Source: Fibrobacteria bacterium
GTDB taxonomy: Bacteria > Fibrobacterota > Fibrobacteria > UBA11236
Assembly: GCA_035275285.1 (NCBI GenBank)
Contig: DATENA010000338.1
Span: 5,875 to 69,874 of the forward strand
Direction of reading: 5' to 3'
Length of the DNA: 64,000 nt
How positions within the stretch are numbered: position 1 is the stretch's first letter; each line of letters begins with the position of its first letter. Below are positions 4,636 through 21,666 of the stretch, one piece after another. The notes under the pieces were generated by a model. It did no database searches. It was not told the origin of the DNA and was given only the letters and a program-made list of their open reading frames with translations. Both the position numbers and the translations under genes were made by a program.

Positions 4636-7539
<2,904 letters not shown>

Positions 7540-8711: not shown

Positions 8712-8824
8712 GAAGCGGACGGAGAGACGGCTCCGGAGGCAGACGCCGGAGCACATTTCATGTGCATCCCGTCGGGGGTACAGGCTTATCCCCCGCCGCC
8801 GCGGCTTCGCCCTTCGGAGTCGGG

Positions 8825-8889
8825 GGTCAAGAAAAGAAGAATCCAGCCATTCTTCTTTTCTTAACTCCCGACCCCCGACTCCCTACTCC
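8825..8889. terminator. long imperfect inverted repeat downstream of asd (GAGTCGGGGGTC..AAGAAAAGAAGAAT / ATTCTTCTTTTCTT..GACCCCCGACTC)
   Basis: A 26/33-nt arm pairing with a 6-nt loop, read directly from the sequence. Probable terminator or REP-like hairpin. Confidence 0.4.
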
Positions 8890-8995
8890 CGACGGGACGC
8901 CGCCCCGAGCACCATCACGTCGGATTCCACCCCCCCTTGCCCGATCGCCTCTTAGTCTTATTGCCCCCCGCGTTCCGAAACGCTATACTCCCCCC

Positions 8996-9211: not shown

Positions 9212-9289
9212 GCACCGCATCACTGTATTTCCGTGACGGCCATCCGGAAAAGAATCGACCTTTTCTGAACTCCGAAATAACTTATTGTC

Positions 9290-10207
9290 GTGACAAAAAT
9301 TAAGTTTCGAAAACGCTTCATAAGATTAGCGCGATCACCTCTCACTTATGTGGAATGGCTTGGTTCCACAATTGCGACGGCTCTCGGAACTGTTTCGGCA
9401 ATATACGGTCTCCTTCCAGCCGAACGGGACAAGGTTATTTTATGGCTAGTCGGTGCGCTTGTCTTTTTTGCGCTCATCAACCTAGCCCTCATCACTCTTT
9501 TTAATGCTTACAAGGTGAGATATCGTCGGGGTCAGCGAACTTATGAAGCAATTCATCGTATTGTAGAGGAAGCGCGAAATTGCCGTAACACCCTGACATC
9601 TGAGAACTGTAACCGAGCCATTCGCGAGATATGTTTCAATCATATCGCCAAGGTGCTCGGTGATTTTTTTGGTCCCACGCCAAAAATCACATTAAAATAT
9701 GTTCAAAACGATCTGCTTCAATCAATGAGGTCAGGGGACCAATTCGGACGGCTTACCACACCAGAAAAGGTGAAGGAAAACGAAGTCTTTGAAAAATTGG
9801 TCAAGCATCCCGATAAATTCGGCGCTCTTTACATAAAGGATATCCGAGATAAACAGGAAGTTTCGCAAATATTCGGAGTCGAGGGCGAGCGCCTCGGACA
9901 ACGTGCCGAAGGCAAATATCGTACATTTATGGCCATTCCCCTTCGTTCCTCAAGATATCAGGATGGACCATTGCCGGTTAAGAACACAATTGGTATGTTA
10001 GGCTTCGATTCTATGAAGCCTGGGTCCTTTGAGGATCTTGAAGAAGAAGATTATCAGGCGCTTTATGCCATCGTAGACATTCTCTCGGAATGCGTTATAT
10101 ACTGGCAGCACAACTCTGGAGCGAATAATGGAGAGTCCCAAAGCGGCGGCAACGGTCAGCTACAACCTGACTCTGCCCGAGAGCAAAGTCCTTCTGGCGT
10201 TCTTTGA
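9290..10207 (+). CDS. N-terminal 2-TM membrane anchor with about 230-aa cytoplasmic GAF-like domain; encoded in an AT-rich island
   Basis: Two hydrophobic helices (residues ~22-45 and ~50-72), then a domain ending ...TFMAIPL..GPLPVKNTIGMLGFDS...YQALYAIVDILSECVIYW, reminiscent of a GAF fold. Local GC is far below the flanks. Confidence 0.6.
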   Translation: MTKIKFRKRFIRLARSPLTYVEWLGSTIATALGTVSAIYGLLPAERDKVILWLVGALVFFALINLALITLFNAYKVRYRRGQRTYEAIHRIVEEARNCRNTLTSENCNRAIREICFNHIAKVLGDFFGPTPKITLKYVQNDLLQSMRSGDQFGRLTTPEKVKENEVFEKLVKHPDKFGALYIKDIRDKQEVSQIFGVEGERLGQRAEGKYRTFMAIPLRSSRYQDGPLPVKNTIGMLGFDSMKPGSFEDLEEEDYQALYAIVDILSECVIYWQHNSGANNGESQSGGNGQLQPDSAREQSPSGVL

Positions 10208-10358
10208 GGAAAAGGCCGATGAGTTCAGGAAAATGATGGCTCATGGTCCCATCTCGATTGAAATGCAATCTGGAAAGATCATTTCCATTTTCACCTATAG
10301 TGATTTTCTGGATTGCTTGGTTCAATTGCGCTCTGGCGCCACTTCTATAAAGCTGTAA
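10128..10358 (+). CDS. small protein, possible YezD/DUF2292-like (start 10128 or 10233)
   Basis: ...HGPISIEMQSGKIISIFTYSDF.. resembles the G.I.I..Q.GK.V.IE pattern of YezD-like small proteins. If the start is 10128 it overlaps the upstream gene by 80 nt in another frame. Same AT-rich island. Confidence 0.4.
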   Translation: MESPKAAATVSYNLTLPESKVLLAFFEEKADEFRKMMAHGPISIEMQSGKIISIFTYSDFLDCLVQLRSGATSIKL

Positions 10359-10488
10359 CTCTTCGAGATCTGCTCAGGGAACCGGCCTGAAGCGCCCCGT
10401 CGGCGGGCCTCGGCCGATGAGGCGCCGGGACGCGAAACGCCGTGTTCCCATTGTTTGTTAACTTTCCTCTCCGGAGGAGTCCCCGCTC

Positions 10489-14742: not shown

Positions 14743-16053
14743 ATGTCGAAGATCATCCATAGCCTTCGCTTCCAGCTGCCCGCGGTGGTCATGAGCGTGT
14801 TCGTGGGCATCCTGTTCCTGCTGATGTTGTTCTTCCATGAGATGACCATCATCCTGGTCAAGACCCGGCAACTTGCGGAATCGGCCGAAGTCAACGATTA
14901 CGTGGCCAGTTGGCTCACCAACCTCTCCTCCAGCGCCCGCGAACGGACCAAGCTGATGTCCCTGGGGAACGAAAGCTATCTGCGCACCTTCCAGGTCACC
15001 CTGAACGAAGTCAACGATCTCTATCGCGAGATCGAGCGCATAGGCCCGGATTCGGCGGCGATCTCCACCCAGCAATTGCGCGGCCTCCACGACGAGCACC
15101 AGGAATACATGGAACTGCTGGACGGCTTCGCCAAGGAGCAGACCATCCGCATGCTCGCCAACCGCTCCCGGGCCGCGGCCGCGCGGGTGCATTCCCAGGC
15201 CCCCAGGCAGATCCCCAGGCAGATCGATTCCAGGAAGCGGACCGCCCGGACGCCGGGCAAGCGCGCCGCGACCGGCGGCAGGAAGGCCGGCCGGCAACCC
15301 GGCAAATCCGCCGCCATCGCTTCCAAATCCGGGAAGCGGAAAGCCCCCCTGCCCGCGCCGGCTTCGCCGGAAGCGATGAAGCAGATAGAACTGGATTCCT
15401 CCACCAACGAAACCTTCAAGGCCTATGAGCAGACCCTGCGGGAAGGCCTGTACATGGCGCAGGAAACCATGCGCGCGGAACGCAAGGACAAGCTCAACAG
15501 CCTGCGGAACTCCGTGGGCCGCGCCAAGGACCGCCTCATCTATTCCCTGCTGCTGCTGCTCGCCATGGTGGGCTACGTGGCCGTCATCCTGAAATGGAAG
15601 ATCCTCGATCCCATGAAGAGCCTGAAGCAGGGGGCCATGGAGATCGGCAAAGGTTCCCTGGGCTACCAGGTGAACGTCGCCTCCCGCAACGAAATCGGCG
15701 AACTGGCGGACGTGTTCAACCGCATGTCCGTGCAGCTGGACCAGAAGCGCAACGCGGAAATGCGCCTTAAGCGCCTGGAAGCCATCGAACAGATAGTGCG
15801 CAGCGTGAACCATGAGATCAACAATCCCCTGATGATCATCAGCGGCAATGCCGAGTACATGCTGGCCATCATGGAAGGCGCGGACGAGAGCCTCAAGGCC
15901 AAGCTGAACGCCATCGTCTCCGAAGTGCGCCGGATCTTCATGGTGACCCAGCGTCTCAAGGAGATCAAGGAACCGGTGACCGAGGATTACATAGGCACCC
16001 AGGACCAGATGATCGATCTGCTCCGGTCCAGCCAGATCCACTTGAGGGACTGA
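14743..16053 (+). CDS. membrane HAMP + HisKA (DHp) protein lacking an HATPase_c domain (truncated histidine-kinase-like)
   Basis: N-terminal TM, a highly basic K/R-rich segment, a second TM, a HAMP-like region (..NEIGELADVFNRM..), and an H-box (RSVNHEINNPLMIISGNAEYM). Only about 85 aa follow the H-box and no N/G1/G2 boxes are seen. Confidence 0.7.
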   Translation: MSKIIHSLRFQLPAVVMSVFVGILFLLMLFFHEMTIILVKTRQLAESAEVNDYVASWLTNLSSSARERTKLMSLGNESYLRTFQVTLNEVNDLYREIERIGPDSAAISTQQLRGLHDEHQEYMELLDGFAKEQTIRMLANRSRAAAARVHSQAPRQIPRQIDSRKRTARTPGKRAATGGRKAGRQPGKSAAIASKSGKRKAPLPAPASPEAMKQIELDSSTNETFKAYEQTLREGLYMAQETMRAERKDKLNSLRNSVGRAKDRLIYSLLLLLAMVGYVAVILKWKILDPMKSLKQGAMEIGKGSLGYQVNVASRNEIGELADVFNRMSVQLDQKRNAEMRLKRLEAIEQIVRSVNHEINNPLMIISGNAEYMLAIMEGADESLKAKLNAIVSEVRRIFMVTQRLKEIKEPVTEDYIGTQDQMIDLLRSSQIHLRD

Positions 16054-16646
16054 TGACGGCCCGACTGATGACGGCCCCTTTCCGCCCTCGTCTTGCCCGG
16101 CTTCCGCGTCTTTCCCGCCTCGGCGCCCTGCTGTCCGCCGCGCTCCTGGCCGCCTGTGCGCCCACCCGGCAACCGACCGTGGCGGAAGAATCGGTCCGGA
16201 CCCCCATGGACAAGGTCCTGGCGCGCCTGGTCTCCAGAGGGGAACTGGACAAGGCCATGCGGACGGCCGACAGCCTGAGCGCGTCCCGGGAGTCCTCGGA
16301 CCGCGAGATAGCCGCCTACTGGAAGATGGTGGCCTGGCTGTACCGCGACGAACCCGATTCGGCCCTGGTCGTCCTGGAAGCGGGCCAAGGCAAATGGACC
16401 GGCGGCTTGCGCAAGGTGCACGCCTCGCTCTTCCTGGGGATGGCCCGCGAAGCCAACCGGAACCGCATGGCCGCGCGCGCGCGCCACGATGAATCGGCTC
16501 CCTGCGCGCCCGCCGACAAGTCCGTCCAGGACAGGTTGGAGTCCCTCCAGAAGGAAACCGGGGACCTGCGCGCGGAGAATGCGCGCCTGGAAACCGAAAA
16601 GGAAAAGTACCAGAAGCTTTTGAAGGACCTGGAAACCATCCGCTGA
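16053..16646 (+). CDS. lipoprotein with C-terminal coiled coil (197 aa)
   Basis: Lipobox LLAAC|A. C-terminal heptad-like LESLQKETGDLRAENARLETEKEKYQKLLKDLE. The start overlaps the upstream stop (TGATG). Confidence 0.55.
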   Translation: MTARLMTAPFRPRLARLPRLSRLGALLSAALLAACAPTRQPTVAEESVRTPMDKVLARLVSRGELDKAMRTADSLSASRESSDREIAAYWKMVAWLYRDEPDSALVVLEAGQGKWTGGLRKVHASLFLGMAREANRNRMAARARHDESAPCAPADKSVQDRLESLQKETGDLRAENARLETEKEKYQKLLKDLETIR

Positions 16647-16660
16647 GGCCGTTTGGATAG

Positions 16661-16782
16661 AAGTCAAAGTGCAAAAGGCAAAAGGCAAAGTGCAAAATGG
16701 AAGAAGTGGGGAACCTCCCCTAGAAGGCGCGGGACCGAGTCCTGATTTTGCACTTTGCATTTTGAACTTTGACTTTTGAACT
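16661..16782. repeat. composite palindromic intergenic element, copy 1 (arms built of AAGTCAAAGTGCAAAAGGCAAA subrepeats)
   Basis: Left arm 16661-16701 (AAGTCAAAGTGCAAAAGGCAAAAGGCAAAGTGCAAAATGG) is the near reverse-complement of right arm 16745-16782 (GATTTTGCACTTTGCATTTTGAACTTTGACTTTTGAAC). A second copy lies at 19971..20116. Confidence 0.7.
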
Positions 16783-17960
16783 CTCTCTCTCTTTTGAAAT
16801 CCCCCCGCGGTCTACCTACCTTTCCCCCCGTGGACGACATACGCAAAGACCTGTTCCAATCCCTGCACCGCCTGGTCATCAAGGTGGGCACCAAGATCCT
16901 CGTGGGCGAGGACAACGCGCCTTCCTGGGACCAGCTCAACCATCTGGTGGCGCAGCTTTCCCTGCTGCATGACGAGGGCTACGCGGTGGTGCTGGTCACC
17001 TCCGGCGCCGTGGGCGTGGGGATGAGCACCCTCGGCTATGCAACCCGCCCCAAGGAGCTTCCGGAGAAGCAGGCCTGCGCGGCCATCGGCCAGATCCGCC
17101 TGATGCACATGTACTCGGAATCCTTCGCCAAACGCGGCAAGACCGTGGCGCAGATCCTCCTTTCCGGGGACGATTTCCGGGACCGCGCCCGCTTCAACAA
17201 CATCCGCAAGACGGTGGGCACCCTGTTGGAGAAGCGCGTCATCCCCATCATCAACGAGAACGACACCATCACCACCGAAGAGATCAAGGTCGGGGACAAC
17301 GACAAGCTGAGCGCCGATGTGGCCCATTTCCTGGAGGCGGACCTGCTGGTCATCCTCTCGGACGAGGACGGCCTGTTCACCAAGAACCCCAAATCCCATC
17401 CGGACGCGGAGGCCATTTCCGTGGTGCCGCGCATCACGCCGGACATCCTCAAGCTGGCGGAAGAGAAGCCGGGCTCCAAGGTGAGCGTGGGCGGGATGAA
17501 GGCGAAGCTGCTGGCCATCCGCCAGGCGACGGAAGCCGGCACCCCGGCGGTGCTGACCCGCGGGCATGGGGCGCGCCTGCTGGACCTGGTCAAGGGCAAA
17601 CCCCTGGGCACCCTGTTCCTGCCCAACCCGGACAAGATAGGGCGCAACAAGCGCTGGCTGGCCTTCGTGTCCAAGGCGCGCGGCCAGCTCTTCCTGGACG
17701 AAGGCGGCGTGAAGGCGATGCGCACGCGCAAGTCCAGCCTCTTGCCCGCGGGCATCCGCGACAGCAAGGGGACGTTCAAGTCCGGGGATTTCGTGGAAGT
17801 GTGCAGCCTGGAAGGCGACGTGATCGGCCGGGGCCGTTCGGCCTATTCGGCGGCGGAGGTCCAGCTGATCCGGGGGCACAAGAGCAACCGCATCCCGGAA
17901 CTCCTCAACCGCAAGGGACCGGACGAGGTGATCCACCGGGATCAATTGGTCATTTTCTAA
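16776..17960 (+). CDS. proB: glutamate 5-kinase with C-terminal PUA domain
   Basis: ..VIKVGT..L, AVVLVTSGAVG, IINENDT, and PUA C-terminus. The track start is a TTG inside the repeat element; a GTG at 16830 (VDDIRK) is an alternative. The start is uncertain. Confidence 0.85.
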   Translation: MNSLSLLKSPRGLPTFPPVDDIRKDLFQSLHRLVIKVGTKILVGEDNAPSWDQLNHLVAQLSLLHDEGYAVVLVTSGAVGVGMSTLGYATRPKELPEKQACAAIGQIRLMHMYSESFAKRGKTVAQILLSGDDFRDRARFNNIRKTVGTLLEKRVIPIINENDTITTEEIKVGDNDKLSADVAHFLEADLLVILSDEDGLFTKNPKSHPDAEAISVVPRITPDILKLAEEKPGSKVSVGGMKAKLLAIRQATEAGTPAVLTRGHGARLLDLVKGKPLGTLFLPNPDKIGRNKRWLAFVSKARGQLFLDEGGVKAMRTRKSSLLPAGIRDSKGTFKSGDFVEVCSLEGDVIGRGRSAYSAAEVQLIRGHKSNRIPELLNRKGPDEVIHRDQLVIF

Positions 17961-17984
17961 GGCCGTCCGCGCCCGGCCGGGCCT

Positions 17985-18161
17985 TCAGATGATGGAGCGC
18001 CGGCGGCGGCCGAAAATGTCCATCGGCCCCCGGTTGCGCAGGAGATCGTGGCGGGAGCCCCAGCCTCCGGCATTGCGCCTCAGGGCGAATCCGCGGTTCC
18101 GGCGGTTGAGCATCTTGAAGGCCGTTCCCGCCAGCAGCAGCATGAATATGCGTTTGATCAT
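17985..18161 (-). CDS. small hypothetical protein (58 aa), hydrophobic N-terminus and Arg-rich C-terminus
   Basis: ATG preceded by GGGAGGGA Shine-Dalgarno at -6. MIKRIFMLLLAGTAFKMLNRRNRGFALRRNAGGWGSRHDLLRNRGPMDIFGRRRRSII. It lies in the 366-bp gap between proB and proA, on the opposite strand. Confidence 0.4.
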   Translation of the reverse strand: MIKRIFMLLLAGTAFKMLNRRNRGFALRRNAGGWGSRHDLLRNRGPMDIFGRRRRSII

Positions 18162-18326
18162 GGATCCCTCCCGGTAACCGTCCATTCTTCCAAAATAAAT
18201 TCGCTTGGGAGCGGTTGATACGCCGGCGGCCGGGTCCGGAGCCGCCCGGTGCGGGTACGTGGCCGGCGCGCGCGTCCCCCCGCACGCTTTGCGGCCGCGC
18301 CATTCCTGTATACATTTACCAGAAGT

Positions 18327-19586
18327 ATGGACGATATCACCTCTTACGCCCGGGTTCTGGGCGAAAACGCCCGGGAAGCCTCCCGGCAATTGCGGGCCCT
18401 GCCCCGCGCCAAACGCGACGGCGCCCTCAAGGCGCTGGCCAAATCCCTGATCGCCTCCCAGGCGGAAATCCTGGCCGAGAACGACAAGGACATGGAGGAA
18501 AGCAAGGAGCGGGGGCTGAGTCCCTCCATGCTCGACCGCCTGCTGCTGACGCCCGCCCGCATCCAGGGCATCGTCGAAAGCGTGGACTCGATCGCCGCCT
18601 TCCCCGATCCCCTCGGCAAGTCCCTCGGCAGCCGCAAGCGCAAGGACGGCCTCAAGATCGCCCGGGTCACGGTCCCCATCGGCACCATCCTGTTCATCTT
18701 CGAATCGCGCCCCAACGTGACCATCGACGGCGGCGCCCTCTGCCTCAAGAGCGGCAACGCCGTGATCCTGCGCGGCGGCAAGGAAGCGGCCCGCACCAAC
18801 GCCGTCTTCGCCCGCCTGTTCCAGGCGGCCCTCAAGTCCAAGGGCATCGACGAGCGCGCGGTGCAATTGGTGAACAAGCCCGATCACGGCCTGGTGGATC
18901 TGCTGCTCACGGACGTCAAGCACGTGGACCTGGTGATCCCCCGCGGCGGCGAGCGGCTGATCCATTCCGTGGTGGAGAAGGCCCGCATCCCGGTCATCAA
19001 GCATTACAAGGGCGTCTGCCACACCTACGTGGACAAGACCGCGGACCTCAAGGCCGCGGAGCGCATCGTCGTGAACGCCAAGGCCCAGCGCCCCAGCGCG
19101 TGCAACGCCATGGAGACCCTGCTCATCGACGGGCACATCAAGCCCGCCGCGGTCAAGCGCATCCTGGACAGCCTGGTGGAGCATAACGTGGAATTGCGCG
19201 GGGACGAGTTCATCCGCAACCTGCATCCCAGCGTCAAGCCCGCCGTGGAAGCGGATTGGGGCGAGGAGTTCTCCGATCTGAGGCTGGCCGTGAAGATGGT
19301 GGACGGCGTGGATGAGGCGGTGGAGCACATCAACAAATACGGCACCGGGCACACGGACGCCGTGCTGGCCAAATCGCCCAAGGTGCAGAAGGCCTTCCTG
19401 GCGGGCGTGGACAGCGCCTCCCTGATGGTGAACGCTTCCACCCGGTTCGCCGACGGCGGGGAATACGGCCTGGGGGCGGAAGTGGGCATCAGCACGGACA
19501 AGCTGCACGCGCGCGGGCCCATGGGCCTGGACAGCCTCACCACCTACCGCTGGATCGTGGAAGGGACGGGACATGTCCGCAAATGA
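18327..19586 (+). CDS. proA: gamma-glutamyl phosphate reductase
   Basis: Aldehyde dehydrogenase-superfamily ProA motifs (..FESRPNVT.D...LKSGNA.ILRGG.EA..., catalytic Cys in ..[12 protein letters not shown]). Start at MDDITSY. Confidence 0.9.
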
Positions 19587-19968
19587 CGCCATCGAACCCC
19601 TGCTGGGCCAGGTCAGGTTCGGCGCGGACGGCCTGGTCACCGCCGTGGCCGTCGACGAGGGCGACGGGCAGGTGCTCATGCTGGCCCACATGAACCGGGA
19701 ATCCCTGGGGCTGACCCTCGCCACCGGCTACATGACCTACTGGTCCCGCTCCCGGAAAAAGCTCTGGCTCAAAGGCGAGACGTCCGGCAACCGCCAACGG
19801 GTGGTGAGCGCCAGCCTGGACTGCGACGGCGACGCGCTGCTGTTCCGGGTGAAGCCGGAAGGCAACGGCGCCGCCTGCCACGAGGGGTACCGCAGTTGTT
19901 TCTTCCGCCTGCGCAAGGACGGGGAATGGGAGATCCAGGGGAAGCCGGTTGGGCGGTCTTCCGGGTAG
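19573..19968 (+). CDS. hisI: phosphoribosyl-AMP cyclohydrolase (monofunctional HisI)
   Basis: ...[13 protein letters not shown]...G...YWSRSR.KLW.KGETSGN.Q.V.....DCDGDALL..V...G.ACH.G..SCF. It overlaps the proA 3' end by 14 nt. Confidence 0.85.
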
Positions 19969-19970
19969 AA

Positions 19971-20116
19971 GGCAAAAGTCAAAGTGCAGAAGTCAAAGTT
20001 CAAAATTTGAATACGGGAAACCTTTCCAGAAGTCTTTCCAGGCTCATGGAACCCCGGCTTAGGCGATGAGTCTCTTCAATTTTGCACTTTGCATTTTGAC
20101 TTTTGCACTTTGAACT
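19971..20116. repeat. composite palindromic intergenic element, copy 2
   Basis: Left arm 19971-20011 (GGCAAAAGTCAAAGTGCAGAAGTCAAAGTTCAAAATTTGAA) pairs with right arm 20078-20116 (CAATTTTGCACTTTGCATTTTGACTTTTGCACTTTGAAC). It starts 3 nt after the hisI stop and ends 6 nt before the tilS ATG. Confidence 0.7.
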
Positions 20117-20121
20117 CTCCC

Positions 20122-21666
20122 ATGGCTGACACCACCGAACAGGCCCTAGACCTCTGGGACCAAACAACCCGGTCCTTCCTCGCCTCCCAAGGCTGGCATC
20201 CCGCCGGCTCCTCCCTTCTCCTGGCCGTATCCGGCGGGGCCGATTCCGTGGCCTTGCTGCATTGGGCGCGCCGGACCGTCTCCCGCCGGGGCGGCCGCCT
20301 CGCCGTGGCCCACGTCAACCACGGTCTGCGCCCCGCGGCCGCCGCGGAGCGGGACTTCGTCTCCGCGCTGTGCCGCGATCTGGGCATCCCCTGCCATCTG
20401 CGCGACCTGGATCCGGGCCGCCGCCCGGCGCGCGAATCCGTGGAAATGTGGGCGCGGCGCGAGCGCTACGGTTTTTTCGCCGCGGCGGCCCGGCTTGCCG
20501 GGGCCGACTGGATCCTGACCGCCCATCACCGTGACGACCTGGTCGAGACCGTGTTCCAGCGCCTGGGGCGGGGGACCGGCCCGCGCGGCCTCCGGGGCAT
20601 CCCTTTCCGGCGAGCGGGCATCGTCCGGCCTTTGTTGAGCCGCAGCCGGGCCGAAATCCTGGCTTACCTCGGTTTGTGCGGCGCGTCATGGCGCGAGGAC
20701 GAATCCAACGCCGACGTGCGCCTCGATCGGAACTGGTACCGGCACCGCTACCTGCCCTCCCTCCGGCGCGGGGATCCGGGACTGGACGCGCGCGTCTTCG
20801 CCCTGGCCATGCAAGTGCAATCGCTCGGGAAGGGTGTCGACGCCCTGGAGGAGGAGGCCGCCCTGCTCCGGGCCGACGGCGAAGGGATGCCGTATCTGGA
20901 CCGCGCAGGCATCGCCGAACGGGTGGCGGAGGAAGATCTGGAATCCCTGGGCTTCTGGATGCGCAGGTTGACGCGGGCCGCGGCTCCCGGACTGGGCCGG
21001 CAAGCGGCCGCCCGCCCACTACCGGTTACAAAAGAGATACTCTTGGAGTTTTGCCGCCAATGGAAATCGGAATCCGGGCCCGGACGCTTGCAGGTGCCTT
21101 TGAACGCCGCGATCGCGCTGAAATGCCGAAATGGGGGTGTTTACTGCGCGTTTTCATCCCCGGGCGCTTCCGCGGAACGGCGGGCGGCAAAAAAAAGCTG
21201 CTCCCTGCGGGCCCAAAGGGTTATACTGATCGAAGGCTTTTGCGAGGTTTCCTGGCGTTGGGGAGATCTCGCCTACACACTGGCGGCGCGCCGGTTTCCC
21301 AGGCCGGAAAACCTGGAATATCCCGCGTCGGGGGAGGAAAGGGCGATCTTTGATGCAGACCTCTTTTCGTGTACATTACTTATACGAACTCGGAAGGACG
21401 GCGATCGCTTTTCCCCTTTGGGGGTACAAAGCCGTTCGCGCAAATTGAAAACTTTTTTCAACGAGGAGAAGGTTCCGATCGGCAAGAGGGAAATGCTCCC
21501 CATCGTCTTCGCAAGCGGGCCGCCTTTGGACGGCTCGCCCGCGGATGAAGCATCGGGCGGTGGAAGCGCCGCCTGGGTGCCCGGTCTAGGAATATCCGAT
21601 TTCTTCAAGGTCAGCGGATCGACTTCTCACATCCTTGAGTTGGTGCTTAAATGCGAGAACCCCTAG
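20122..21666 (+). CDS. tilS: tRNA(Ile)-lysidine synthetase
   Basis: PP-loop [18 protein letters not shown], and TilS C-terminal domain. Start at MADTTEQ; the track's 20089 start lies inside the repeat. Confidence 0.85.

Follow-up and report, generated by a model that had tools for sequence, protein, structure and literature searches.

Two palindromic elements of inverted heptanucleotide repeats upstream of proB and tilS in a Fibrobacteria genome: candidate members of a class associated with PF05635 genes

In Xanthomonas, convergent pairs of heptamer arrays of the form (GGGAATC)n ... (GATTCCC)n occur at 70-75 pairs per genome; related genomes differ in array length but agree in whether an array is single or paired (Rehm et al. 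2015, PMC4692102). Geobacter metallireducens carries three classes (1-3) of opposite-strand pairs, made of 3-5 tandem hepta-, octa- or nonanucleotides at variable spacing, with tens of pairs per genome, none in the sister species, and one pair between proB and proA (Aklujkar et al. 2009, PMC2700814). We describe here two intergenic composite palindromes of this kind, 130-150 bp long, in a 64-kb stretch of DNA from a Fibrobacteria bacterium (the window, in whose positions all element coordinates are given): copy 1, at 16656-16787, upstream of proB, and copy 2, at 19966-20121, upstream of tilS. The reading that we prefer, to which we give about an even chance, is that both are gene-less members, resembling intervening sequences (IVSs) and REPINs, of a widespread class of paired inverted heptanucleotide repeats, which would be co-transcribed with the flanking genes, folded out and probably cut by RNase III. 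The elements are new in their unit (TTTGNNN) and in their phylum; their kind has already been described and is unexplained.

REPINs consist of two inverted conserved arms and a less conserved spacer; they form hairpins of about 100 nt and are intergenic, mostly lying after or between co-directional genes. The arm of a REP is a short palindrome, imperfect and headed by a conserved GTAG, and REPINs depend on a RAYT gene. Both REPINs and REP elements are said, since the work of Bertels and Rainey in 2011, to be mobilised by RAYT transposases. The 23S rRNA IVS of Coxiella burnetii contains an open reading frame (ORF) for S23p and has a terminal stem of 28 bp; RNase III excises it, cutting at tandem heptamers whose number varies by strain (Warrier et al. 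2016, PMC4990558). In the 5' untranslated region of Haemophilus influenzae hmw1A, just upstream of the gene, a transcribed (ATCTTTC)n array and a purine-rich (G-rich) arm form a hairpin that RNase III cuts; this hairpin is required for expression and for shifts in repeat number, and RNase III influences the two as well (Rapun-Araiz et al. 2025, PMC12721329). The TAACTGA repeats of Beggiatoaceae, Cyanobacteria and Bacteroidetes are intergenic tandem heptamers located just upstream of start codons (MacGregor 2015, PMC4679880), and heptameric short tandemly repeated repetitive sequences (STRRs) are present in the cyanobacterium Calothrix PCC 7601, according to the passage on them in PMC4692102.

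Structure of the two elements and their occurrence in relatives

The repeat unit of both copies was a heptamer. The 5' arm is made of NNNCAAA units and the 3' arm of TTTGNNN units; the CAAA/TTTG core is fixed and three bases vary. An earlier note on this DNA had proposed subrepeats of 10-12 nt; these are not the unit, as Tandem Repeats Finder returned a period of 7, in 4.4-5.1 copies, in all four arms. The composite palindrome with nearly reverse-complementary arms that the same note described was found again: a repeat finder placed the arms of copy 1 at 16656-16698 and 16745-16787, 43 nt each, 77% complementary and 46 nt apart, with best sub-stretches of 29 nt at 86% and of 12 nt at 100%. The left arm of copy 1 is the reverse complement of the right-arm unit series TTTGCAC/TTTGCAT/TTTGAAC/TTTGACT. 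Its second copy before tilS was likewise recovered, on the same heptamer-array plan, with arrays at 19970-20004 and 20081-20115 and outer motifs that extend from the TAG at 19966 to 20121. The loop of copy 1, given earlier as 43 nt and GC-rich, is indeed GC-rich, but measures 46 nt; that of copy 2 measures about 72 nt. Arms and terminal motifs are common to both copies; the two centres have no sequence relation. The parts of the elements are as follows.

16656..16702, copy 1, 5' arm: terminal GGATAGA, then the A-rich array AGTCAAA GTGCAAA AGGCAAA AGGCAAA GTGCAAA
16703..16744, copy 1, centre: variable, GC-rich, with two small hairpins, GGGGA-ACC-TCCCC and GGGAC-CGA-GTCC
16745..16787, copy 1, 3' arm: the T-rich array TTTGCAC TTTGCAT TTTGAAC TTTGACT TTTGAAC, then terminal TCTCTC
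19966..20008, copy 2, 5' arm: TAGA, then the A-rich array AGGCAAA AGTCAAA GTGCAGA AGTCAAA GTTCAAA
20009..20078, copy 2, centre: variable; 35% identical to the orthologous centre of the relative L304, which is about chance level
20079..20121, copy 2, 3' arm: the T-rich array TTTGCAC TTTGCAT TTTGACT TTTGCAC TTTGAAC, then TCTCCC, abutting the tilS ATG

In the window, whose G+C content averages about 64%, these arrays stand out. Exact matches to four successive TTTGMMY units were present in the elements, and with up to 3 mismatches the same pattern gave 15 overlapping matches, compared with 0.00 expected, all of them confined to copies 1 and 2. The 12-mer of the earlier note, CAAAGTGCAAAA, with up to 2 mismatches, was matched 15 times in the window compared with 2.7 expected, and 12 of the 15 matches lie inside the two copies.

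The syntenic region was compared in eight relatives (L numbers denote the loci compared). At the hisI-tilS junction, 3 nt separate the two genes in L318 (TAG-GTC-ATG) and in L319 (TAG-GAA-ATG), the genes overlap in L303 and L321, and the spacer is 26 nt in L305. This spacer is 153 nt in the window and 143 nt in L304, and contains a CAAA/TTTG palindrome in both. L304 is the closest relative by ProA (86%) and HisI (88%), and the simplest reading is a single gain of the hisI-tilS element in the common ancestor of the window and L304. Two derivations from local sequence were rejected: the centre is not the ancestral spacer, the relatives' spacers resembling the sequence that follows the element rather than the centre, and the element is not the source of a new HisI C-terminus, HisI tails being equally long with and without it.

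Upstream of proB, the CAAA/TTTG element was found only in the window and in two other assemblies, identical to the window over the 201 nt aligned at copy 1. At this place L302 (ProB 92% identical) has a C-rich array, CCCCTAATCCTTAG repeated three times (L302 9925-9985), and L304 has a G-rich array, GGGGTTAGGGATCAGGGGCTGGGGGCTG, and a complementary C-rich array, CCCTAAC CCATAAT CCCTTGC CCCTAAC, at about 9560-9590 and 9930-9965, around a centre of about 350 nt; in the comparison across relatives, the distance between these two L304 arrays was put at about 560 nt. Other repeats are present in L318, and the spacers are 20 nt in L319 and 38 nt in L303. A generic period-7 detector was too strict for the degenerate arrays at the relatives' loci. 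The site upstream of proB is a hotspot, where differing heptamer classes come and go between lineages. It was also observed that the C-rich arrays of L302 and L304 at the copy 1 position resemble telomere repeats.

A third palindrome with the same architecture was observed at 8806-8895, about 95 nt downstream of asd. It is made of a GC-type heptamer (CGGAGT CGGGGGT, an inner hairpin, then ACTCCCG ACCCCCG ACTCCCT ACTCCCG); the inner hairpin is perfect and AT-rich (AAGAAAAGAAGAAT-ccagcc-ATTCTTCTTTTCTT), and the predicted fold of the whole reaches -49.9 kcal/mol. A low-GC island (about 9230-10400, 47% G+C compared with about 64%) adjoins it and contains ORFs of 305 aa (9290-10207) and 76 aa (10128-10358), neither of which had a Pfam or PADLOC match. 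In L303 and L305, asd lies almost directly before the gene for the Orn/DAP decarboxylase; the island of the window is probably a recent acquisition.

Members elsewhere and the association with PF05635

Scanning metagenomes for two heptamers followed by TTTGAACTCTC gave 81 stretches, many of them plain (TTTGAAC)n arrays. Members in L125/L201, L198, L183, L133/L195 and L153 have the termini of the window elements around unrelated centres of 46-144 nt and beside different neighbour genes, with a longest identity to the window termini of 23 bases (GGATAGAAGTCAAAGTGCAAAAG). The common termini are GRTAGA-AGTCAAAG ... TTTGAAC-TCTCYC, and both ends, read as inverted repeats, give G-R-K-AGA followed by RKTCAAA. 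Next to the upstream stop codon is the GRTAGA flavour, and next to the downstream start the GAGAGA flavour, which reads TCTCTC on the top strand; in copy 2, L304 and L125 the TAG of GRTAGA appears to double as the upstream stop codon. The earlier note had named, as a refutation of its element, the case that just these two copies exist; the 64-kb window has two copies only, but these others, with the same termini, are present at other metagenome loci. The class is gained and lost between close relatives, and copies that share its termini turn up at unrelated loci.

From rough gene calls that were then corrected by hand, the spacers that paired elements nearly fill are bounded by co-directional genes in about 18 cases, by convergent genes in 4 and by divergent genes in at most one; the counts are approximate, as the calling errs on strands in GC-rich contigs (copy 1 itself was called 'divergent'). 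A scan of a genome collection for four TTTGMMY units gave at least 119 stretches, and among the matches listed were Cyanobacteriota, Acidobacteriota, Bacteroidota, Planctomycetota, Verrucomicrobiota, Chloroflexota, Clostridia, candidate phyla and others. At many loci an A-rich array is followed by a complementary T-rich array within 10-400 nt. When neighbouring arrays 8-300 nt apart were counted over all array-selected loci, the order was A...T in 42 cases and T...A in 2, and the orientation was direct in 31; the A...T asymmetry is not predicted by hairpin potential alone.

The four-heptamer pattern was also found in 99 stretches of IMG/VR viral contigs (L203-L301), which include several metagenome-assembled genomes (MAGs) of giant viruses and phage contigs. 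The arrays of giant-virus MAGs are long and uninterrupted (up to three or more adjacent 28-nt matches), and only 5 A...T pairs were present in the viral contigs.

The sole recurrent cargo of the class was PF05635, the family of 'four helix bundle' or '23S rRNA intervening-sequence' proteins. Centres of 360-400 nt encode PF05635 proteins in L049 (Stahlbacteria), L088 (a gammaproteobacterial MAG) and L099 (Oscillospiraceae), with E values of 7e-19 to 2e-29; the centre-encoded protein also matches TIGR02436 and, weakly, the Avd protein of diversity-generating retroelements (DGRs). Six of the nine PF05635 ORFs in array-selected loci had TTTG/CAAA arrays within 400 nt, mostly abutting the ORF. To avoid selection by arrays, plasmids were searched with one PF05635 protein (31 records), and 12 diverse loci were taken regardless of repeats. 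Upstream of these genes, period 7 was the strongest periodicity in all 12 flanks, and downstream in 11 of the 12; the reverse complement of the heptamer was found on the opposite side of the gene, with 14 of 14 positions matching in 5 plasmid loci and 13 of 14 in 4. The flanking heptamer is lineage-specific (TAGTGAT, GTGAAAG/CTCTCCG, CAGTGAG/TGGTCAC, GTAAAAA, CAGTTAA, GTCGGAG/CTCCGAC, CCCCAAT/ATTTACG, ATGAATT, TCTAAAA). As a control, 50 kb of Treponema saccharophilum pTS1 (L308) were examined: there are seven period-7 arrays, none of them more than 270 nt from the PF05635 gene; in Chondrinema this closeness holds for one of two.

The plasmid PF05635 genes (L306-L317) sit between operon genes, often those of defence operons: between hsdS and hsdR (Monoglobus), between cas2 and cas1 (two Nostocales), before cas1 (Pseudanabaena), between a helicase and an N6-methylase (Chlorohelix), between DUF1156 and Swt1-HEPN genes (Gloeocapsa), and between an RND adaptor and an RND permease (Chondrinema). 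In L088, a gene-carrying cassette (1321-1752) and a gene-less palindrome (5532-5639) agree at 24 of 24 positions in the left arm and at about 52 of 56 in the right, and their flanks are unrelated. Because the arms are nearly identical and the flanks are not related, the gene-carrying and gene-less forms are, at least in the L088 genome, two states of a single element.

Two further arrangements were observed. In L127 (13505-13820, the same in L162), (GTTCAAA)5 ... (TTTGAAC)3 surround a 260-nt centre that encodes a 78-aa ORF, probably a coiled-coil, for which Pfam gave no significant family, so that PF05635 is not the only cargo. In L123 (1947-2560) the structure is nested: an empty palindrome is followed by three T-rich arrays, each ending in CTCCCC, and a PF05635 gene lies 2 nt after the last of them; 3' of this gene is another small palindrome, and the ATG of the next gene is 3 nt past an array.

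The literature search found, in the papers it covered, no work that joins PF05635 genes in general to flanking heptamer arrays, and nothing relevant on the TTTGNNN class or on the repeat strings. To our knowledge, the paired arrays of Xanthomonas, Geobacter and cyanobacteria have been left unexplained for 15-35 years, and no function has been known for 23S rRNA intervening sequences and S23p since the early 1990s. The present comparison ties these two puzzles together, PF05635 genes being almost always bracketed by inverted heptamer arrays, within operons, with gene-less palindromes of the same arms nearby. This association could account at once for rRNA intervening sequences, for S23p and for the excess of heptamers.

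Gene context, predicted folding and competing explanations

The genes around the two elements form a co-directional string: a HAMP/HisKA kinase, a 197-aa lipobox protein, copy 1, proB, proA, hisI, copy 2, tilS, ftsH and folP. Their homologues, by source names, put the host, an uncultured bacterium, in Fibrobacterota / Fibrobacteria. The genes that border the elements are listed here.

16053..16646, + strand, gene upstream of copy 1: 197-aa ORF with a lipobox-like LLAAC, TGA stop at 16644-16646
16830..17960, + strand, proB (glutamate 5-kinase): likely start GTG 16830, 376 aa
19573..19968, + strand, hisI (PRA-CH): TAG stop at 19966-19968, the first three bases of the copy 2 terminal motif TAGAAG
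20122..21666, + strand, tilS: likely start ATG 20122, 514 aa

Copy 1 starts 10 nt past the upstream TGA and stops 43 nt ahead of the proB GTG; copy 2 runs from the TAG stop of hisI to the last base ahead of the tilS ATG. The label of lipoprotein that the earlier note gave to the upstream gene is plausible by virtue of its lipobox-like motif. The same note had placed the start of proB at a TTG within the right arm. In-frame TTG codons are indeed present in the right arms, at 16776 for proB and at 20089 for tilS, but a real proB start there is made unlikely by two other assemblies, of DNA identical over the aligned copy 1 region, which call ProB from GTG 16830 (376 aa) and TilS from ATG 20122, and by the ProB relatives, nearly all of which have 373-378 aa. 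Both TTG codons are probably false starts, artefacts of gene callers, because each TTTGNNN unit supplies one (every 7 nt). TTTGNNN arrays are an annotation trap for this repeat class, in which ORF finders and gene callers are drawn to false upstream starts. A Shine-Dalgarno-like sequence is missing from the proB and tilS leaders.

The proB-proA spacer (17961-18326) was observed to be unusually long, about 290-365 nt depending on the proA start, compared with 23-55 nt in L303, L305 and L319. Within it is an antisense ORF, called as a 58-aa gene in another assembly, and L304 and L321 also have insertions at the proB-proA junction.

The predicted RNA folds of both copies were better than those of shuffled sequence (copy 1, -48.7 kcal/mol, z -2.9; copy 2, -53.8 kcal/mol, z -4.5). 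Family members elsewhere gave predicted interrupted stems of 25-35 bp, with z from -4.3 to -6.5. The base of the predicted stem lies 1-12 nt from the stop codon, and its distance to the tilS start is 3-8 nt in copy 2 and about 4 nt in L304.

In the reading that we prefer, an A-rich array (NNNCAAA)n, a variable centre and a complementary T-rich array (TTTGNNN)n would form a selfish or semi-domesticated insertion into transcribed spacers, of which a longer form carries a PF05635 gene in its centre. The element would be co-transcribed with the flanking co-directional genes, and its arrays would pair as an interrupted stem of 25-35 bp, so that the centre is looped out and the upstream stop and downstream start region are brought together. 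This restored proximity of stop and start would explain why 143-153 nt are tolerated where relatives have 3 nt or less, a tolerance inside an operon that may be likened to that of an IVS inside 23S rRNA. The long stem would be a likely substrate for RNase III, and the element may also split the operon transcript. Transcription through the elements, their folding in vivo, their cleavage by RNase III and the mode in which copies spread are steps that we infer.

A wider proposal can be put forward as tentative, and is distinctly less probable than the preferred reading. The paired arrays would be the ends of a phylum-spanning cassette, whose full form carries PF05635 (S23p, remotely related to Avd, the accessory protein of DGRs), enters operon spacers, notably those of restriction-modification and CRISPR adaptation genes, as well as 23S rRNA, and is neutralised by arm pairing and RNase III excision. 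The window copies would then be its solo, non-autonomous form, and pentameric S23p might bind, maintain or spread the arrays. If true, this proposal would give S23p a function and would provide an origin for rRNA intervening sequences, cyanobacterial STRRs and the excess of heptameric repeats.

Several observations weigh against the preferred reading. The antisense and sense strands of both copies fold about equally well, and the models do not favour an RNA role of the sense strand over a role at the DNA level. The order of heptamer variants is not exactly mirrored between the arms, their complementarity comes mostly from the CAAA/TTTG cores, and the arms could be two independent arrays instead of a selected stem. 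Many TTTGNNN arrays of other genomes have no detectable partner. Window and L304 are 74-75% identical in the arms of the hisI-tilS element and 35% in the centre, but any two CAAA arrays align at about 70%, and the identity of the arms reflects retention of array type and termini, not of individual positions. No target-site duplication was found when the filled sites (window, L304) were compared with the empty ones (L318, L319), and no transposase was found in the window, whose ORFs were not all scanned for RAYT. There was no PF05635-like ORF in the 64-kb window and no remnant of PF05635 in short centres (40-330 nt); the window elements are tied to the PF05635 cassettes by analogy with other phyla.

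Three other explanations were considered. It is unlikely, although less so than for the other two, that the arms are tandem sites of about 7 nt for an RNA-binding protein (cold-shock-domain or S1-type OB-fold) or a DNA-binding one (regulator or nucleoid protein), with arm pairing secondary and the T-rich array acting as a leader that controls translation or transcription of proB and tilS. This explanation takes in the multi-site operator suggested by the earlier note, which is kept as a rival. The site covered by a cold-shock domain is 6-7 nt long, with a preference for T-rich heptamers. The T-rich arrays do stop 0-45 nt short of start codons (TTTGAACTCTCCC-ATG for tilS; TTTGAACTTac-ATG and TTTGAACTTaat-ATG in L123), the lack of Shine-Dalgarno-like sequence in the two leaders is in keeping with such a role, and so are the frequency of unpaired arrays and direct pairs (31 direct) and the presence of other pyrimidine-rich arrays at the same place upstream of proB in relatives. 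There are also precedents: binding of S1, Csp or CsrA was proposed for the TAACTGA repeats just before start codons (PMC4679880), the arrays of G. metallireducens, one of them between proB and proA, were read as IHF/HU sites (PMC2700814), and the ctxAB promoter of Vibrio cholerae is reported to recruit transcriptional regulators via TTTTGAT heptad repeats. However, no candidate binding protein was identified, the downstream genes (proB, tilS and others) are functionally unrelated, which argues against a regulon, and the heptamer differs completely by lineage under a constant architecture, a poor fit to one sequence-specific binder. Binding to a leader would, alone, explain neither the A...T order (42 compared with 2) nor the complementary array 50-150 nt away. 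A second explanation is a bidirectional intrinsic terminator or insulator, the same on both strands and attenuating transcription between genes; an A-rich tract, a hairpin and a T-rich tract are the layout of such terminators. The near-invariant order, the two small GC hairpins of the copy 1 centre, each followed by a T-rich array on its own strand, the GCCGC-AGTC-GCGGC at the end of the L304 centre before a T-rich run, and the 4 paired elements between convergent genes compared with at most one between divergent genes all fit this explanation, which we nevertheless regard as quite improbable. A consensus scan of 16000-20500 for intrinsic terminators (a GC-rich stem of at least 5 bp directly before a U run) found a single site, at 20451, and none within copies 1 or 2; the GC stems of the elements are of 4-5 bp only and their U tracts are interrupted. 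G-rich and C-rich heptamers build the same architecture without a U tract (window 8806-8895, L304, and L312 from Nostoc punctiforme pNPUN01), and a terminator would explain the A...T order for the AT-type unit but not for these GC-type ones. tilS and ftsH are essential, and an efficient terminator in copy 2, at a junction where relatives have 3 nt or an overlap, ahead of these genes and with no promoter-like site after it, should be harmful.

The structured terminator-antiterminator suggested by the earlier note is not supported: copy 2 lies inside the gene string before tilS and ftsH, where relatives have no spacer, a scan with the sigma-70 promoter consensus found no site at either element, and neither a terminator-like site nor an Rfam match was obtained there (no match in the whole window at gathering scores, and none at E<=1 in 16600-20200). 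The absence of an Rfam match, and the presence of the same type of element before tilS and unrelated genes, also led us to reject a leader for proline or amino acids, or a riboswitch, before proBA. The remaining explanation, slightly less probable again than the terminator, is that of functionless microsatellites: heptamers would have expanded by slippage in AT-rich spacers, and would be complementary as the same unit grew on both strands. Array length and unit order do shift quickly between orthologues, the spacer upstream of proB keeps changing from one relative to another, and heptameric repeats are over-represented in many bacterial genomes (PMC4692102). Slippage alone would leave unexplained the A...T order (42 compared with 2), the terminal motifs shared outside the arrays at unrelated loci, the retention of both arrays across the divergence of window and L304 while the centre was randomised, an insertion of 143-153 nt at a junction that in relatives has at most 3 nt, and the tight association with one gene family, PF05635.

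Comparison with described systems

An integron attC site was rejected as an identity for the elements, whose flanks are core housekeeping genes in conserved synteny; the element ends are, presumably, unlike attC core sites. As for MITEs (miniature transposable elements with inverted repeats), terminal inverted repeats are present, target-site duplications and a conserved interior are absent, the centres being unrelated between copies. The elements share with REPINs two inverted arms, a variable spacer, a hairpin and a dispersed intergenic location; unlike those of REP elements and REPINs, their arms are tandem heptamers and not palindromes, and a GRTAGA motif stands at one end. The REP/MITE-like nature suggested by the earlier note is therefore retained in part, for a repeated, hairpin-forming intergenic element that varies among relatives and keeps its termini at unrelated loci, and abandoned for the interior, which is not conserved, the target-site duplication, which is lacking, and the arms.

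Compared with the 23S rRNA IVS, the elements have in common terminal inverted repeats, predicted to form a long stem that would loop out a variable interior, and a probable location within a transcribed unit. In the Coxiella IVS, the heptamers are in the 5' part of the stem (PMC4990558). The interior of an IVS often carries a PF05635 (S23p) ORF, the gene of a four-helix-bundle protein. Unlike IVSs, which lie in helix 25 or 45 of 23S rRNA, the window elements are between protein-coding genes and carry no ORF, and no rRNA or other Rfam family was found in the window. The hmw1A hairpin resembles them as a long hairpin ahead of a gene, with a pyrimidine-rich heptamer array and a complementary arm; it differs from the window class as a single locus devoted to adhesin phase variation, with one repeat arm only and no dispersed family.

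The TAACTGA repeats are similar as tandem intergenic heptamers, often a few nt before the starts of genes in Shine-Dalgarno-poor genomes, scattered over distant phyla, and the TAACTGA unit flanks the PF05635 gene of Chondrinema. They form mainly direct arrays, with one inverted set in a Beggiatoa genome, and neither a cargo gene nor a hairpin role was proposed for them (PMC4679880).

The sites of G. metallireducens are alike in their paired, opposite-strand tandem arrays at variable distance; they differ in their units (GTTGCTYN, TCTCCGTS and MTYCTGA), and the IHF/HU-type interpretation was a guess of the authors (PMC2700814). A heptamer of the Geobacter class 3 (MTYCTGA) type, CTCCTGA/CTTCTGA, adjoins TTTGAAC arrays in L136, L151 and L169. 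At these three loci, purine-rich units of AAGAAGA type were observed to be followed by CTCCTGA/CTTCTGA and then by (TTTGAAC)n, ending a few bases before a start codon.

The pairs of Xanthomonas are, like the window elements, intergenic tandem heptamers, with one array per strand, convergent and capable of forming a stem-loop (PMC4692102). Unlike the window unit, the heptamer of Xanthomonas, a gammaproteobacterium, is rich in G; it was examined for its formation of G-quadruplexes and was not linked to a gene family, S23 being unmentioned (PMC4692102). The window unit is TTTGNNN/NNNCAAA and its host belongs to Fibrobacterota. The elements of the window have the features by which paired heptamer arrays are recognised: their arms are made of tandem 7-nt units, the arrays are on opposite strands and convergent around a variable spacer, and the elements are intergenic, present in several copies and variable among relatives.

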